Assembly (NCBI GenBank): GCA_965197585.1
Contig: OZ240215.1
Location: forward strand, 2,176,001-2,240,000
Direction of reading: 5' to 3'
Length of the DNA: 64,000 bases
Origin: Dehalococcoidia bacterium
GTDB lineage: Bacteria > Chloroflexota > Dehalococcoidia > Plut-88900
Shown here: piece by piece, positions 2,917-64,000 of the stretch
Position numbering within the stretch: the stretch's first letter is position 1
Layout: each line of letters opens with the position of its first letter
Notes under the pieces: model-generated
Database searches by the model: none
Seen by the model: the letters and a program-made list of their open reading frames with translations, nothing else
Told to the model about the DNA's origin: nothing
Translations under genes and position numbers: made by a program

Positions 2917-2945
2917 TTGACCCATACAAACATATGTGCTATATT
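2917..2945 (+). promoter_or_regulatory. sigma70 promoter with overlapping LexA-like box (element copy 1)
   Basis: TTGACC-17 nt-TATATT with TGn extension. AAAC-ATAT-GTGC (2928-2939) resembles GAAC-N4-GTTC. The same layout occurs in the other two copies. Confidence 0.65.
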
Positions 2946-2949
2946 CGCC

Positions 2950-3771
2950 ACAGTCTAGACCCGACACCCACCTTAAGGAGGAACCAAAACACCAGGGAAG
3001 CCCCCGAGACCCACCCGAGGACTCAACGCCCTAGCCCATCCCAACGGCCCTCGCGCAGGCCCGAGGCTCAAGCAACAGACGCCATCTCCTCTCACCAGGG
3101 TCCCGGCTATCCCTTCCAGCATCAGGCGATGGGAGGTTCCCGGCATCCATCCGGCTAGCCAGCTCCCTATCAGCGCCCCCGTCGGGGGGCAAACCTACAT
3201 AACCGGCATAGACCTTGCCGGCCAGTCCGAACAGTCGGAATAGCGCCGACTCAAAACCAACGCACCCTTTAGGGATTCCACCGTCGTCACCGCCGGCAAG
3301 CTCCGGTCTACAAACGGCGGTCTCGGGTCCCCGCTCCCATCCCTTGGGATGGTCGAGCACTTCTGGTGGACGGGACTGCCCCACACCGAGAATATCTCGG
3401 GTCCCGCCACATCCTCTCAGAAGTCAGTGGCAAGGATTCCACCGTCGTCACCATCGGCAAGCTCCGGTCTACGAACGGCGGTCTCGGGTCCCCGCTCCCA
3501 TCCCTTGGGATGGTCGAGCACTTCTGGTGTACGGGACTGCCCCACACCGAGAAATCCTCGGGTCTCGTCCACATCCTCTCAGAAGTCAGGGGCTGTCGCA
3601 GAGAAATAGTCGACCCAACGGGTATCGACACAGGCGTCCCCGCCATCCTGCGCAAACGTCCGGGAACCTCCATCGCCGACCCTCCAAAACAAACAAAACA
3701 AACCGAAACCCCACAAGTGAACACCATCCCCCATGTATAATCCCCAAGGTCGAAGATCCGCCTAGGGCGGA
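2950..3771 (+). ncRNA. Putative large structured ncRNA, copy 1 of a dispersed family
   Basis: 5' ~190 nt homologous to 8614-8812 (minus) and 63870-64000. Long-range helix 3125-3143/3660-3677. A/C-rich tail 3678-3717. No reading frame is conserved between copies. Confidence 0.55.
3273..3589 (+). repeat. Tandem duplication, two ~155-bp units (period 161)
   Basis: GGATTCCACCGTCGTCACC...CTCTCAGAAGTCAG at 3273-3427 and 3434-3589, near identical. Confidence 0.95.
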
Positions 3772-8008: not shown

Positions 8009-8107
8009 CCGTTGGGAATTCCGACGCCGCCTATCCTATCGCCCACCCGTTCCCGGTGTCAATCTGATGTACTCGTCCGGTAGGTCAGTGACACACTGGA
8101 GTTTTCT

Positions 8108-8812
8108 TCAGTCCTCCTGAGGCGGATCCTCCAGAGGCGGATGTTCCCCGCCTACGACGGACTTGCAGCATCTTCGATTGTGGGGTTTGGGTTTCCGTTC
8201 TGTCTGTTGGGTTTTGGGTTGACGATGGAAGACGCTTGCCGGATTCGGCTCCCTATTTTTAGATAATGCGAGCTTGGAGGCGTCCCGGGAACGTGGGGAC
8301 GGGGCTCCGCCGCCGCCTAGACCTGGAAGTATGATAGGACATACGGGTCCGTCATCCGTCATAGGCTCCAATAAGGGTTGGCTGCGCTGTCCGCCGGAGG
8401 CGGATGCAGGAAGGGGAAAGTCCAGGGTCAGTTCCCCTCGCAGGAGTACGGGGTATCCGGTTCGCCGCCTGTATCCAGGAACCCGGAGTGGCGGGCGGCC
8501 CAGTTTCATTTGATGAAGCGGACGGAGAGCCGAGCGGTCCTCGGCTACGGGCTGCCCCGTTCCGCTCCATAGGTCGGGTTGCTCCGTGAGGAGACTTTTA
8601 TGTACGGTCCAGGGCGTCTTCCATCGCCTGATGGTCAGGGTAAGGGATAGCCGGGGGCCCTTGGCAGAGGAGATGGCGGCGTTCGCTTGTGCCGTGGGGC
8701 GGCGTGTAGGCCGCCCTTTGGGATGGGCTTGGACGTTGAGTCCTCGGGGGCCGGGTGGGCTTCCCTGGGTTGTGGTTACCTCCTTAAGGTGGGTGTCGGG
8801 TCTAGACTGGCC
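8108..8812 (-). ncRNA. Putative large structured ncRNA, copy 2
   Basis: Reverse strand shares CAGTCTAGACCCGACACCCACCTTAAGGAGG and downstream blocks with copy 1. Helix 8614-8628/8221-8235. A/C-rich tail 8178-8220. The interior is unrelated to copy 1. Confidence 0.55.
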
Positions 8813-8814
8813 CA

Positions 8815-8843
8815 ATAATAGAACATGTGTCTTATGAAGTCAA
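8815..8843 (-). promoter_or_regulatory. sigma70 promoter with LexA-like box (copy 2)
   Basis: TTGACT-17 nt-TATTAT on the minus strand. GAAC-ATGT-GTCT at 8821-8832. Confidence 0.65.
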
Positions 8844-8887
8844 GGGGTGGATGTCACACTTTTGGGGGGGGCACCGCCCCGGCCCTT

Positions 8888-9048
8888 CCGGGGAACCCTC
8901 ACCCCCTTGGTCCCCCTCTCCCTTAGGGCCTTCAAGGGAGAGGGGGAGATAAGAATAGAGGCCCATGTGCGTGCAGAGCACGCACATGGGCCTCTAATTC
9001 AGTACTGGGGAGAGGGGAGGGATGGATTCCGGCTCGGGGTGGGAATGA
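8888..9048 (-). repeat. Composite double-hairpin REP/MITE-like element, copy A
   Basis: Homologous to 51294-51493 and 63640-63802. Perfect 19-bp hairpin 8956-8996 plus a CCCCTCTCCCTT...AAGGGAGAGGGG hairpin. Confidence 0.85.
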
Positions 9049-9126
9049 GGGTAGGGTGAGGAGATCACCCAGCCGGTTGTCGGGGAATACCTAAACGCTG
9101 CCCTGGTTGCCGATGACCCGACCGGC

Positions 9127-10602
9127 ATGACGTGGCAGTGGGCCCGCTCCCAAGATGGAGAGAGCGGCTGGGAGGACATCGAGGCTGCAACCTCTACGAA
9201 GTACATCCCCACCAGTGATGACGCAGGACACTACCTCCGGGCAACCGTCTCCTATACCGATGGGGACGGCAACACCCAGAGTGCGGATGCAATCACCACC
9301 GATCAGGTGGCGCTAGTGAGGAGTGGTGTCCGCTGCCCACACTGCGAGCCTGAGCCGATATGGACGCCGACCCCGGACCCTGCTGTAACACCTACCGCTA
9401 CGACTATGCCAACCGCTACCTCTGAACCCTGCGACGGCCGGCGACATGCCCACGATTGTCACCCGGACTACGAGACTCCAACCCCCGTTCCCACCAACAC
9501 GCCCGTGCCTCCATCCCCGACGCCCGTGCCTCCATCCCCGACGCCCGTGACGCCATCCCCGACGCCCGTGACGCCATCGCCAACGCCCGTGCCTCCTACA
9601 CCCACGGCCACACCCCTACCGCATTCGGACTGCGACGCATTGTGTCGAGACCCATCGGCGTGTTGCCCCACCCCAGTTCCCATGCCAACATCCACCCCCA
9701 CCCCCACGCCAACTCCGACGCCTACCCCCACGCCAACTCCGACGCCCACCCCCACACCCGACCTGGGCGGGCCCACCCCCACCCCCACACCGACGCCCAC
9801 GGCGCACCCAAAACCTACTCCGTTAGCAGAGGGGGTGGAGAACATAGGCCGGCAACGAGACAGACTTGCGCAATTCGTCTTTGACATGGAAGGGTGCTTG
9901 GCAAGCTACACGAAGAGCGAGTGCGATACAGTCCGTCAGGGCATCATCAGTGGGGCTGCTGCACTAAACCTAGCGATGAAGCAGGAGTTTGATGAGCCGG
10001 GCAAGCTCGGCGCATTGGTGTGCGAAAAGACCACCGACCCGAATGTGGGACACGACCATGTGTGTCCAACGGGCAACGAGCATGACCCGAACCTGGATGA
10101 CGGCTATGTTGTCACCATCAAGGTAGCGGCCCCAAATGACGGGGAGTTTGTCGATAATTGTAAACCCAATTCCCTTGCTTGCGTATTCCCAACTAATGAG
10201 TATGAAGGAGAGCCGGGAGACGAATTCATAGGCGACCGCACAATACTCTTCACGATGGGACAAGGGTTTCAATTTGATGGAAAACCCGGACTATCGCCCG
10301 TCGAATGGACAAACGACCCTCACCTTCATGGCGAGCCAACGGAAGATGTAGAAGGTAATCCCCAAGGTTTATTTTACATTGACAAGACCGCAATGCACGA
10401 ATTCTTGCACGTGCTGGGGGGTCCTGACGGGGATGACACGAGCAACCCCGAGCAATTCGACGATACCCTGTTGGGATGGGATAAGGATGTATGGAACGAA
10501 AAACTCCAGCAGTGCAGAATCGAAGAGACCGTTGCGCTGGTGTATTGCCTACAAGAAGAGTTTAGGACGGGGGACTCCCAGACTTTCGGGGGCATATACT
10601 AG
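9127..10602 (+). CDS. Pro/Thr-rich surface protein with Ig-like fragment and C-terminal HEXXH zincin-like domain (probably 5'-truncated)
   Basis: TWQW..S...W..I......[17 protein letters not shown] Ig-like motif, PTP repeats, [10 protein letters not shown]. No signal peptide. The frame is open upstream only to TAG 9052-9054. Confidence 0.6.
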
Positions 10603-10649: not shown

Positions 10650-12641
10650 ATGCGAACGTTGTATAGAAGTCGATTGCGGGTGTTGCAGGTCATGGGTATG
10701 GCCCTACTGGTTCTTGTGCTCCTTGCGATGGGCTGTGGTGATGCCGACAACGGGGTGGAGACCACACAGGGCAATGGCAATAGTTCGGCATCGGGTGGGA
10801 TGTCCAGCGGCGTTGCCTACACAGGCGAGACCTCGATGGAGGAGGCGTTGGCATACGCAGATGCGGTGGCCCGAGTTAGGTACAGGTCCGCCAGGCAGAC
10901 CATCGAGGAAATCAGGCTGCAAATCCGCAATGCCGACTGGCATCACACTTTTTATGCCAACTCCATCGAGATTACCTTCGAGGTCCTCGAATATCTCAGG
11001 GGAAGCGGAGGCGATGAAATCAAAGCGGTGTTGTACGACCAGGACGGATGGCAGGAGACCCGTGCGGAGGTGGAAGCCCTCAATGAGAACCTGTTGCCCT
11101 TGCGCAACACCCAATGGGACGAGAGGGAAGCCATCGTGTTTCTACGTTCGAGTGACCATGTGGTCAGCACGTACAACGACCCCGACCGCTATTGGTTGAC
11201 CTCCTTCCGCAACAACGGAGAGGACGGCTACACGGTCGGCAGCAGATGGGTAAAGGCGTGGCTCCCCGATGCCGCCGCACCGGGGGCTAGGGGCAGGGCA
11301 TCGGGCGGAGATCAGCGGTTCTTGATAAATCTGCCGGGTGGATCCCAAGGCGCGAGCGGACAGAGGAGCACCCAAGGTGAGTCGATGACAATCAGTGATT
11401 TGAAGGCCCTGGTCACCAGGATAGGGGATGAGCTTGCCGCCGGCGGTACGGAAGCCTACGCAGAGTGTGTGAAAGACAAATACAGCTCGGCAGGATATGA
11501 CCAATATCTCAAGAACCATCGTGAGACCGTATGGGGCGTAGAGTACAACGAACAGCACGTGAAAGTAATAACATCGGGTGCACCAGCCGGAACCGAAGTG
11601 TACGTCGATAGAGCGTCTGCACATAAAAATGTGGACGAAATACCCGATTCGCTCGATATTGATGATGTGATATTGCACACCGGTCAGGATGCGGACTTGT
11701 TTGACAAGGCATGGCCAGGCAACGCCGTTACGGCCCGACCACTCCCTCAAGGCACGTACCGGTTCTATTGGGCCTCCCAGCCCAAAAATTTCGCCTTGTG
11801 TGATGCTATATCGGAACTCCGCAAGAACAGGCACGAGGTAATCGTTACGGTGACGCCTCCCGAGAACACCCTTCACGAAGCCTTCTTTGATCCTGTTACC
11901 ATCGGCACTGGGGTGGGAGCGGACTCTTCAAACGGTGTGCTCAAGCCGGCTGGGTTCACGGTGGATGGGACCTCAACCTCTATCACAAGTCTGAAGTATG
12001 ACAACAGCAAAGTCGTGTTGACCCTGTCTACCCATGTATCCCTCACAGGGCAAAAGGTGGAGTTTATAGAGCTGGACGGGTCGGTGGGGTTGGCGCTGGA
12101 GGTCTCATCTGCCACGGAGGACAGCACGGCGGGGACCCTTACGTGGTCGGTATCAGAGGAGCCGTGGGAGGACGGGGATGAGCTGATGGTGCAGATAGCC
12201 GCATCCACAGCCGGCCCTACCGCCACTGCCACCCCAGAACCTACGGCCACACCTGCTCCTACTCCTACCCCAGAACCTACGGCCACACCTGCTCTTACTC
12301 CTACCCCAGAACCCGCATCCGCTGTCACCGTCACCCTCAACCCTCGCGTAACCACCTACGTTACCCACACCGACATCACAGTCGACTGGACCGACTCCCT
12401 CTCCTGCCAGGGCAGCTACTTTGTAGCCGTGTTTGACAGCTCTGCCAGCGCAGTCAGAATTCTCGGCTTCCCCTCCGCCCCAGCCACCACCACCCTCACC
12501 GCCGACCTCGGCCTTCACTGGGATACCGTCCCCAACTTTGACTGGACCGTTGGCGTCAGGTGCGATCCTTCAGATTACTCTATCAATTCGTGGATGGTAG
12601 GTGAGGTGGCCCTTCAGTCGGGCTTGCCGACTACCCCGTAG
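10650..12641 (+). CDS. Lipoprotein of unknown function with PTPEP linker
   Basis: Hydrophobic signal with LAMGC lipobox, 663-aa ORF, PT repeats. Confidence 0.7.
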   Translation: MRTLYRSRLRVLQVMGMALLVLVLLAMGCGDADNGVETTQGNGNSSASGGMSSGVAYTGETSMEEALAYADAVARVRYRSARQTIEEIRLQIRNADWHHTFYANSIEITFEVLEYLRGSGGDEIKAVLYDQDGWQETRAEVEALNENLLPLRNTQWDEREAIVFLRSSDHVVSTYNDPDRYWLTSFRNNGEDGYTVGSRWVKAWLPDAAAPGARGRASGGDQRFLINLPGGSQGASGQRSTQGESMTISDLKALVTRIGDELAAGGTEAYAECVKDKYSSAGYDQYLKNHRETVWGVEYNEQHVKVITSGAPAGTEVYVDRASAHKNVDEIPDSLDIDDVILHTGQDADLFDKAWPGNAVTARPLPQGTYRFYWASQPKNFALCDAISELRKNRHEVIVTVTPPENTLHEAFFDPVTIGTGVGADSSNGVLKPAGFTVDGTSTSITSLKYDNSKVVLTLSTHVSLTGQKVEFIELDGSVGLALEVSSATEDSTAGTLTWSVSEEPWEDGDELMVQIAASTAGPTATATPEPTATPAPTPTPEPTATPALTPTPEPASAVTVTLNPRVTTYVTHTDITVDWTDSLSCQGSYFVAVFDSSASAVRILGFPSAPATTTLTADLGLHWDTVPNFDWTVGVRCDPSDYSINSWMVGEVALQSGLPTTP

Positions 12642-32837: not shown

Positions 32838-32929
32838 GGAGGGATCGCATAGTGGTCTAGTGCGGGCGCCTGCTAAGCGCTTATCTGGGGAAACCTGGAT
32901 CGTGGGTTCGAATCCCACTCCCTCCGCCA
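32838..32929 (+). tRNA. tRNA-Ser (GCT)
   Basis: Acceptor GGAGGGA/TCCCTCC-G-CCA, anticodon loop CTGCTAA, long variable arm, GGTTCGAATCC T-arm. Confidence 0.97.
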
Positions 32930-51293: not shown

Positions 51294-51493
51294 GTCATTC
51301 CGGCCCCAAGCCGGCTGTAAGTGCGCCTATGGTGTGAATCCCTCCCTCGGGGTGTGGATGCTCCCTCCTCCCCCAGTACTGAATTAGAGGCAGGGATATG
51401 TGCAAAGCACATGTGCCTGCCTCTATTCTTATCTCCCCCTCTCCCTTGAAGGCCCTAAGGGAGAGGGGGATAAAGGGAGTGAGGGTTCCCCGG
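51294..51493 (+). repeat. Composite double-hairpin REP/MITE-like element, copy B
   Basis: Homologous to 8888-9048 (reverse) and 63640-63802. Confidence 0.85.
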
Positions 51494-51617
51494 AAGGGTT
51501 GGGGGGCCATCCCCCGTAAGGGCGACCGGCCGATCGCCCTCCCCGGTAGCGGTGCACCCGGGACCCGACCCAATCCGGGGGGGCCATGTGGGCCACCCCA
51601 CCTATGCCACCACCCAC

Positions 51618-63529: not shown

Positions 63530-63639
63530 AAATAGAAGGAACTCCTTTCGGGGTGGGGAGTGGCCCCTTATGCACCCATGTTACCATCCCCTCGCACTAT
63601 GCTAATAGGTAAACTCTCACAACCTCCCACCCCCCTCCA

Positions 63640-63802
63640 TCATTCCGCCCCCGAGCCGGAATCCATCCTTTCCCCGCTCCCCCAGTACCAAACAGAGGCA
63701 TGCACCTGCGCCAAGGCGCAGGTGCATGCCTCTGTTTTTCCCTCCCCCTCTCCCTTAATGGCCCTAAGGGAGAGGGGGACCAAGGGGGTGAGGGTTCCCC
63801 GG
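63640..63802 (+). repeat. Composite double-hairpin REP/MITE-like element, copy C
   Basis: Homologous to copies A and B. Hairpin AAACAGAGGCATGCACCTGCGC..GCGCAGGTGCATGCCTCTGTTT. Confidence 0.85.
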
Positions 63803-63835
63803 TGGGGTCCCTTCCCCAGGTGTGCAATCAACCCC

Positions 63836-63864
63836 TTGACCCATATGAACATAAGTGCTATTCT
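63836..63864 (+). promoter_or_regulatory. sigma70 promoter with LexA-like box (copy 3)
   Basis: TTGACC-17-TATTCT. GAAC-ATAA-GTGC at 63847-63858. Confidence 0.65.
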
Positions 63865-63869
63865 CTTCA

Positions 63870-64000
63870 CTGTTCGAACACCAACCCAACTATCTCAAGG
63901 AGGAACCAAAAACCCAGGGAAGCCCACTAGCCCCACCCGAGGACTCAACGCCCCAGCCCAGCCCAACGGCCCTCGCGCAGGCCTGCGGCTCAAGCAAACG
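63870..64000 (+). ncRNA. Putative structured ncRNA, copy 3 (5' part only)
   Basis: AAGGAGGAACCAAAA.CCAGGGAAGCCC...CCCGAGGACTCAACGCCC...CCCAACGGCCCTCGCGCAGGCC, nearly identical to copy 1. Confidence 0.55.

Follow-up and report, generated by a model that had tools for sequence, protein, structure and literature searches.

What purpose does a strong Shine-Dalgarno (SD) sequence serve where no start codon follows it? The question is raised by a locus within a 64,000-nucleotide stretch of a Dehalococcoidia genome (the window, to whose first letter all simple positions refer). A sequence-only reading had set the limits of one copy of a repeated element, copy 2, at 8178..8812; the location was right but the extent too narrow, as the unit covers 8859-8068 on the minus strand (Table 1). 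The source genome holds 57 full copies, and 76 matches in all to a profile of the 5′ part. Each of the 57 combines a promoter of the form TTGAC-17-TA.. with the SD, a conserved 5′ domain, a tail rich in A and C, and a closing helix whose span ranges from 325 to 553 nt. The interiors enclosed by the helix sort into 14 classes, that of copy 2 (class 1) comprising 10 copies in the source genome. The element is present in 9/9 genomes of the genus, and outside the genus weak matches occur in 2/32 genomes. The reading favored here, with a probability of about 0.42, is that it is a non-coding RNA gene of ~600-750 nt, built from a domesticated packaging module, carried as cargo by promoter-homing IS481-like ends and acting as a stabilised, packaging-linked decoy.

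Table 1. Positions of copy 2, its parts and neighboring features in the window
Feature	Position	Strand	Remarks
REP-like hairpin repeat array, upstream of copy 2	8866..9061	not assigned	Lies between left inverted repeat and promoter in the G002 ortholog
GTGACA-containing conserved motif, upstream of -35	8852..8859	minus	Also precedes terminase and capsid operon promoters
Predicted sigma-70-type promoter, TTGACT-17-TATTAT	8815..8843	minus	Type seen in 57/57 copies
LexA-like box AGAC-N4-GTTC in promoter spacer	8820..8833	minus	2 mismatches to GAAC-N4-GTTC
Invariant SD, AAGGAGG(T), without start codon	8778..8785 (AAGGAGG 8785-8779)	minus	
Conserved 5′ domain	8629..8777	minus	Weak consensus fold
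Near-invariant 5′-domain motifs	GAGGACTC 8735-8747; GCCCATCCCA 8719-8728; GCCATCTCCTC 8667-8677	minus	
Closing helix, 5′ arm	8614..8628	minus	Corresponds to terminase codons for D-D-G-R
Structured, exchangeable interior	8236..8613	minus	Class 1 of 14
Closing helix, 3′ arm	8221..8235	minus	Corresponds to terminase codons for S-I-V
A/C-rich, G-poor tail	8178..8220	minus	Possible Rho loading site
Optional small hairpin modules and end motif CTGAAGAA	8104..8177	minus	Common to most copies
Right inverted repeat of IS481-like element	8068..8093	minus	
Probable 5-bp target duplication TCAGA	8063..8067	minus	G001 empty site TCAGA-TTGACA; G003 left copy TCGGA
Host promoter TTGACA-18-TAGGAT of ChsH2-like and thiolase-like genes	8033..8062	minus	Insertion target, outside element
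Copy 1	2917..3720	plus	Shares 5′ domain; interior clearly terminase-like (tblastn E 1e-27); 161-nt duplication
Copy 3	63836..64000	plus	Runs off window end

The element matched no Rfam covariance model at gathering score or at E up to 5, and no description of it was found in the literature (mostly open-access main texts). The sole Rfam match in the window is a tRNA gene at 32838-32926. A retron, DGR or group II intron was considered and rejected, as the reverse transcriptase model PF00078 has 0 matches in the genome and an Rfam intron match is absent.

The SD was followed through 95 copies from 9 genomes, namely the 57 and 38 non-identical copies from further loci, a set that is biased towards class 1 and excludes any copy in which a promoter or helix was not detected. 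AAGGAGG is exact in 95/95, and ATG, GTG or TTG follows 3-14 nt behind it in 0/95, the nearest such codon lying at least 40 nt away, whereas 327/686 of the other AAGGAGG sites in the genome have a canonical start at that distance downstream. The earlier claim of an SD in every copy, followed by A/C-rich sequence without a start codon, thus proved exact. The same is true of the claim that the A/C richness tracks the orientation of the element and not the chromosome strand: tail A+C is 0.84 in 39 plus-strand copies and 0.86 in 18 minus-strand copies. Along a phylogeny built from the 5′ domain, the seven SD columns show 0 changes, the preceding 12 columns 9-20 each and the following 12 columns 3-18. 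The motif lies 23-40 nt downstream of the predicted transcription start (~23 nt in copy 2) and is complementary to the 3′ end of the 16S of the source genome. It is 33-41% unpaired in single-sequence folds, and its pairing with a conserved CUCCUC was not favored in folds of the 5′ domain.

A ribosome bound to a strong SD that has no start codon can block RNase J1 and stabilise the downstream RNA, as published accounts describe (PMC4113751, PMC5737220). Genes for RNase J and Rho were found in the source genome, and csrA in 0/9 genus genomes (87-93% complete). An SD that is invariant and start-less, where csrA was not found and RNase J is present, fits best with a 30S-binding stabiliser of the 5′ end, similar to STAB-SD; the motif thus probably serves a predicted recruitment of 30S subunits that would protect the 5′ end of the RNA. 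Of the two uses offered by the sequence-only reading, 30S recruitment is accordingly supported as the likeliest predicted one, by the 16S complementarity, the seven unchanged columns and RNase J, and the CsrA-like partner for the GGA motifs is disfavored by the csrA count. That the RNA is a CsrB-like sponge for a CsrA/RsmA protein is scarcely credible for the same reason, despite an excess of ANGGA words (5.3 per copy against 2.3 in shuffles, the copies not being independent), and one conserved GGA word falls within the closing stem.

It is also very improbable that a protein or peptide is made from the element, be it from the 235-codon frame (8108-8815) or from an internal ORF. The TTG start of the long frame overlaps the -10 box, its translation is without a match in Pfam and PHROG, and the frame is not retained among 30 class-1 copies, the conservation check having come out in support of an absence of translation, as proposed earlier. 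As a protein, this frame appears largely refuted. In 30/30 class-1 copies an ATG frame within the element (MTDDG...) stays open behind a weak upstream GGAG, and a sister family of loci, considered below, retains ORFs in the terminase frame; both observations favor coding. Against it stand the missing start codon after the SD and the changes by codon position in two internal frames (17/35/39 and 50/42/69), which bear no clear coding signature, and the classes other than class 1 are without these frames.

The closing helix of copy 2 joins GGCGATGGAAGACGC (8628-8614) with GCGTCTTCCATCGTC (8235-8221) on the minus strand through 15 pairs, including one G-U, over a 408-nt span, and the minimum-free-energy fold of the copy contains it (whole-element z -2.55, 20 shuffles). 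The arms of copy 1 run from 3125 and to 3677, with the inner half GAGGTTCCCGG/CCGGGAACCTC; both the helix and its unlike inner half are therefore seen as first described. Exchanging arms between the two copies loses 6-14 kcal/mol. Among the 95 copies there are 66 distinct arm pairs, whose mean duplex energy of -32.0 is reached by 0/500 permutations; permuting arms within helix type only gives a mean of -31.1 +/- 0.17, and the observed value is still unreached. The covariation check on more copies, suggested with the original observation, thus finds the pairing of the 66 arm pairs better than in every permutation, also within type. The 57 copies divide into 35 of GACGC type and 22 of GGTCC type, and what separates copy 1 from copy 2 is mainly one block switch between two lineages, with few independent point compensations. 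Within class 1, changes per site amount to 0.29 at confidently paired sites against 1.42 at unpaired ones, yet only 3/104 consensus pairs carry a double change, so that the RNA structure is constrained with less classical covariation than had been implied. The case for selection on structure consequently holds as to constraint, in view of these rates and the permutations, and is weaker as to compensation at multiple sites. The class stems are also preserved between genomes.

The origin of the helix is suggested by two intact operons of the source genome in which an element-type promoter is joined to a large-terminase gene. The gene product was identified as terminase by fold and Pfam; a PDB sequence search with a single TerL gave nothing, and a profile E 0.11 at best. 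One of these operons has portal and capsid genes in its vicinity. The large-terminase gene occurs in 106/151 genomes of the class, mostly as a single copy, and in several copies in this genus, where the capsid gene stays single while the terminase gene has multiplied. Within the terminase coding sequence the helix arms bracket codons 198-333 and span 408 nt, equal to copy 2. The helix was found in 14/14 intact terminase genes of the genus (against synonymous shuffles, z averages -4.7 and is -1.9 in the weakest gene) and is absent in 24 outgroup terminase genes (mean z 0.2), in which the 5′ arm mostly encodes GGGG, not DDGR.

Terminase similarity is clear in 21/57 interiors, including copy 1, and 36/57 are without significant similarity. 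For the interior of copy 2, neither a profile nor a global alignment with terL was significant (global z -0.5), and the terL score of its first 60 nt was reached by 73/1000 shuffles. The corresponding 60-nt trace in class 1 reaches E 1.6e-4 in the strongest copy, against 0.15 for copy 2. A terminase origin of copy 2 would thus rest on the arms, the 408-nt span and family membership. A relation of the GACGC-type interiors to the portal gene or other loci, as given by tblastx, was rejected, the matches being off-frame and of low complexity. The leader of the capsid operon, TTAAGGAG-ACCAC-ATG, aligns with that of the element, TTAAGGAGGTAACCAC-AAC, in a match that is short and of low complexity, a hint that the element may carry a leader of capsid-operon type in which ATG became AAC.

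The sister family, with 12 loci in the source genome (G000:C1, for example 62860, 684518 and 3022084), has the element promoter and an SD plus ATG. Its product consists of an Arg-rich start of 27 residues joined in frame to a nuclease segment of the terminase that is both diverged and truncated, and the terminase frame remains open through the helix in 11/12 loci despite indels. A series from intact terminase genes over truncated open-frame copies to non-coding RNAs is visible in one genus, which would make it possible to trace how a large structured RNA emerged from an mRNA.

Elsewhere in the source genome (G000:C1:2860000-2876000, L022), genes for a terminase, a portal, a scaffold-like protein and a capsid, which are kept throughout the class, occur together with LexA-like boxes. 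By its gene content, this terminase, portal and capsid set looks like a gene-transfer-agent module. No description of a packaging module in Dehalococcoidia was found in the literature (mostly open-access main texts).

An origin in the terminase gene, together with the multiplied terminase and single capsid genes, would also suit a function at the level of DNA, in which the segment derived from the terminase would be recognised or used as a site for packaging, and capsids would preferentially take up the element and its neighbors. This is nonetheless quite improbable. In the common stem variants G-C has become G-U as read on the transcribed strand (although distinct variants of high-confidence pairs number only 5 G-U against 4 A-C), an unchanging SD whose distance from the start varies (23-40 nt) is a property of RNA, and no inverted interiors were found among the copies.

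The promoter type of the element is shared with the terminase and capsid operons, and a LexA-like box overlaps it. Dehalococcoides shares the LexA motif GAAC-N4-GTTC. The motif is given for Firmicutes and Actinobacteria in the text of one study (PMC3323433). A spacer site with at most 2 mismatches to it occurs in 56/57 copies against 28/307 other promoter-like sites; no copy has a perfect box, and the copies in three relatives (G004, G006 and G008) are mostly without a LexA-like box in the spacer. A lexA gene is present in the source genome, where lexA and recA carry similar boxes with 1-2 mismatches, and several outgroup terminase promoters carry such boxes as well. The box, the invariant SD and the copy number could together support a ribosome sponge, in which DNA damage frees ~57 promoters and the RNAs sequester 30S subunits, slowing translation in dormancy or defence. 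This appears decidedly unlikely, as it leaves the conserved 5′ domain, the helix and the interiors unexplained and the predicted accessibility of the SD is modest.

In 4 RNA studies there are contigs that match 8226-8755 with 85% likeness; as they pool many copies and cannot show strand, ends or level, they indicate presence only. Cover is near zero in the promoter bin and extends over the 5′ domain, though missing contig cover proves nothing. The RNA runs with element pieces include sponge metagenomes. An intrinsic terminator was not found in the tail of copy 2 (8178..8220).

The outer ends of the element point to a mobile carrier. A right inverted repeat of 26 bp is found in 27/57 copies and both ends in 13, of which 6 have an exact 5-bp target duplication and 3 more match at 4 of 5; 30/57 have no recognisable right repeat, and these may have lost their ends by decay or have spread by conversion via flanking hairpin repeats. 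Copy 2 has the right repeat only, its orthologous site in G003 having a full left one. The right repeat is identical to that of transposase-bearing IS481-like elements, and the left is similar. Five nucleotides past the right end lies a -35-like hexamer (at least 4/6 matches in 18/27 copies), with a correctly spaced -10-like TAnnnT in 24/27 copies and 20/23 IS flanks, against 2.9% at random. The sequences themselves thus show IS ends and a targeting of host promoters, the copies being inserted 5 nt ahead of the -35 box.

A scan with the right repeat yielded 23 metagenome loci and 2 other genomes, and 12/25 of these loci hold a complete ~1.06-kb element with a transposase of ~335 aa. The best model for this cognate transposase is NF033577 (IS481; E 1e-53), at 182.7 bits against an NCBIfam cut-off of 224. 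Homologues occur in 5/25 relatives, being broken in G005 and present in G007, G010 and G011; the enzyme was not found in the source genome. In the sediment IS copies (L264-L286), the transposase gene ends in AAGGAGGT directly before the right repeat, with the stop codon within the repeat. IS481-like homing to -35 boxes was not found in the literature (mostly open-access main texts); a promoter-homing transposase of this type with matched ends constitutes an assayable system.

Two other carriers were rejected: a 402-aa transposase within one copy has its own, different ends, and further integrase-core families of the genus differ in ends and targets. The IS of the 402-aa integrase-core transposase (G000:C1:659304-660640, L082; copies in G005 and G001, L181-L196 and L182) lies exactly 5 nt upstream of TTGAC in 11/12 insertions shown, nearly all in promoters of the RNA element family. 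At G000:C1:3404961 (L083, L233; also L206, L230), a solitary left IS end stands directly upstream of the -35 of a groES-like gene with a CIRCE-like inverted repeat, an arrangement common to three genomes.

At the site orthologous to that of copy 2, G002 and G003 have a copy of the same class and G005 a different interior between the same flanks. G001 and G007 have no copy there, G004 has another element, and G006 and G008 carry other classes further upstream, so that a family copy lies upstream at this locus in 6/9 genomes. The element in G004 is related to a locus (G000:C1:1341685, minus, and L061) where an element-type promoter stands before an ORF of 437 aa that contains tandem repeats and a stretch that resembles a small ORF of the terminase operon. 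Between copy 2 and an ABC binding-protein gene sit two large ORFs with Pro/Thr tandem repeats (9127-10602 and 10650-12641), missing there in G001 and G007. REP-like hairpin repeats, present at 8866-9061, 51403-51515 and 63627-63808 and in >100 instances per genome, are targets of other IS families and frequently lie upstream of the RNA element.

Presence and absence at this site, the IS-derived ends, the promoter-adjacent insertion, the 14 very different interiors and the restriction to one genus (9/9, weak matches in 2/32 others) would all be expected of selfish or tolerated cargo, in which the SD, helix and tail are kept only because insertions stay harmless or copies spread by conversion, and no target in trans exists. 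This alternative is unlikely on the whole. The inverted repeats erode while the RNA motifs remain invariant: older copies in G004, G006, G007 and G008 have eroded right ends before the -35 boxes, with SD and helix intact. Stems within a class are preserved across genomes, and a folded RNA of 600 nt exceeds the need for insulation.

The preferred reading, a packaging-linked decoy RNA, combines these features. Constraint on the SD, motifs and stems, the IS ends, the targeting and the exchange of the interior at one orthologous site are shown by comparison of the sequences. LexA would repress the element promoter, and DNA damage would induce the RNA along with the packaging genes. A 30S subunit would dock on the start-less SD and shield the 5′ end from RNase J, the closing helix would enclose a swappable domain, and Rho may stop the transcript on the C-rich tail ahead of the host promoter. 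Most speculatively, the stabilised RNAs might act in trans as decoys or regulators of a binder of the helix domain in the terminase mRNA, tuning packaging. Such control of the packaging module is a best guess as to the final function of the RNA, and the lack of significant terminase similarity in copy 2 and in 36/57 interiors sits poorly with the idea that terminase mRNA is what they mimic. A fuller account, of a new RNA class in which the helix evolved in the terminase gene of this genus, was freed as a damage-inducible, 30S-holding RNA, diversified through exchange of interiors, was spread to dozens of host promoters by the IS and now regulates gene-transfer-agent packaging or throttles translation, must be regarded as doubtful. 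With the SD unchanged in 95 untranslated copies, the family lends itself, as a natural test, to asking whether holding a ribosome can be a function of its own.

Gene-transfer-agent-like packaging modules are an established concept, and the terminase, portal and capsid genes described here resemble them in being class-wide and mostly single-copy. A difference is that the terminase gene of the genus has multiplied and given truncated and non-coding offspring. The STAB-SD of Bacillus thuringiensis cry3A and of no-AUG hbs constructs in B. subtilis is likewise a strong, start-less SD close to the 5′ end, in hosts that possess RNase J, yet in these accounts it protects an mRNA (PMC4113751, PMC5737220), while here nothing downstream is translated. 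Unlike STAB-SD, the SD of the element seems to be a former operon ribosome-binding site minus its ATG.

The IS481 family is characterised by TG...CA ends, a 5-bp duplication and an RNase H-fold transposase. The element resembles its non-autonomous derivatives of the MITE or cassette type in its ~26-bp TG...CA ends, 5-bp duplication and a transposase located elsewhere, and differs from known ones in its cargo, a promoter-driven structured RNA, and in its insertion fixed 5 nt upstream of the -35. Promoter targeting is known for TnGBS, ISLre2 and ISKra4 elements (PMC3942029), yet the TnGBS type is Mutator-like and, in that account, lands 15-17 bp upstream. The ISAba32 group has a 5-bp offset and targets xrs (Xer sites) (bioRxiv 2022.12.17.520857). 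Neither group is said in these accounts to carry an RNA of this kind (PMC3942029; bioRxiv 2022.12.17.520857). The kind of carrier, a non-autonomous IS with cargo, is thus already known. Among large non-coding RNAs, OLE, GOLLD, ROOL, HEARO and CsrB are structured, several hundred nucleotides long and transcribed from their own promoter, and some are multi-copy or mobile. The element resembles them in its structure, its length of several hundred nucleotides and its own predicted promoter; unlike them, it is traceable to a protein-coding gene, and its interior is exchangeable.
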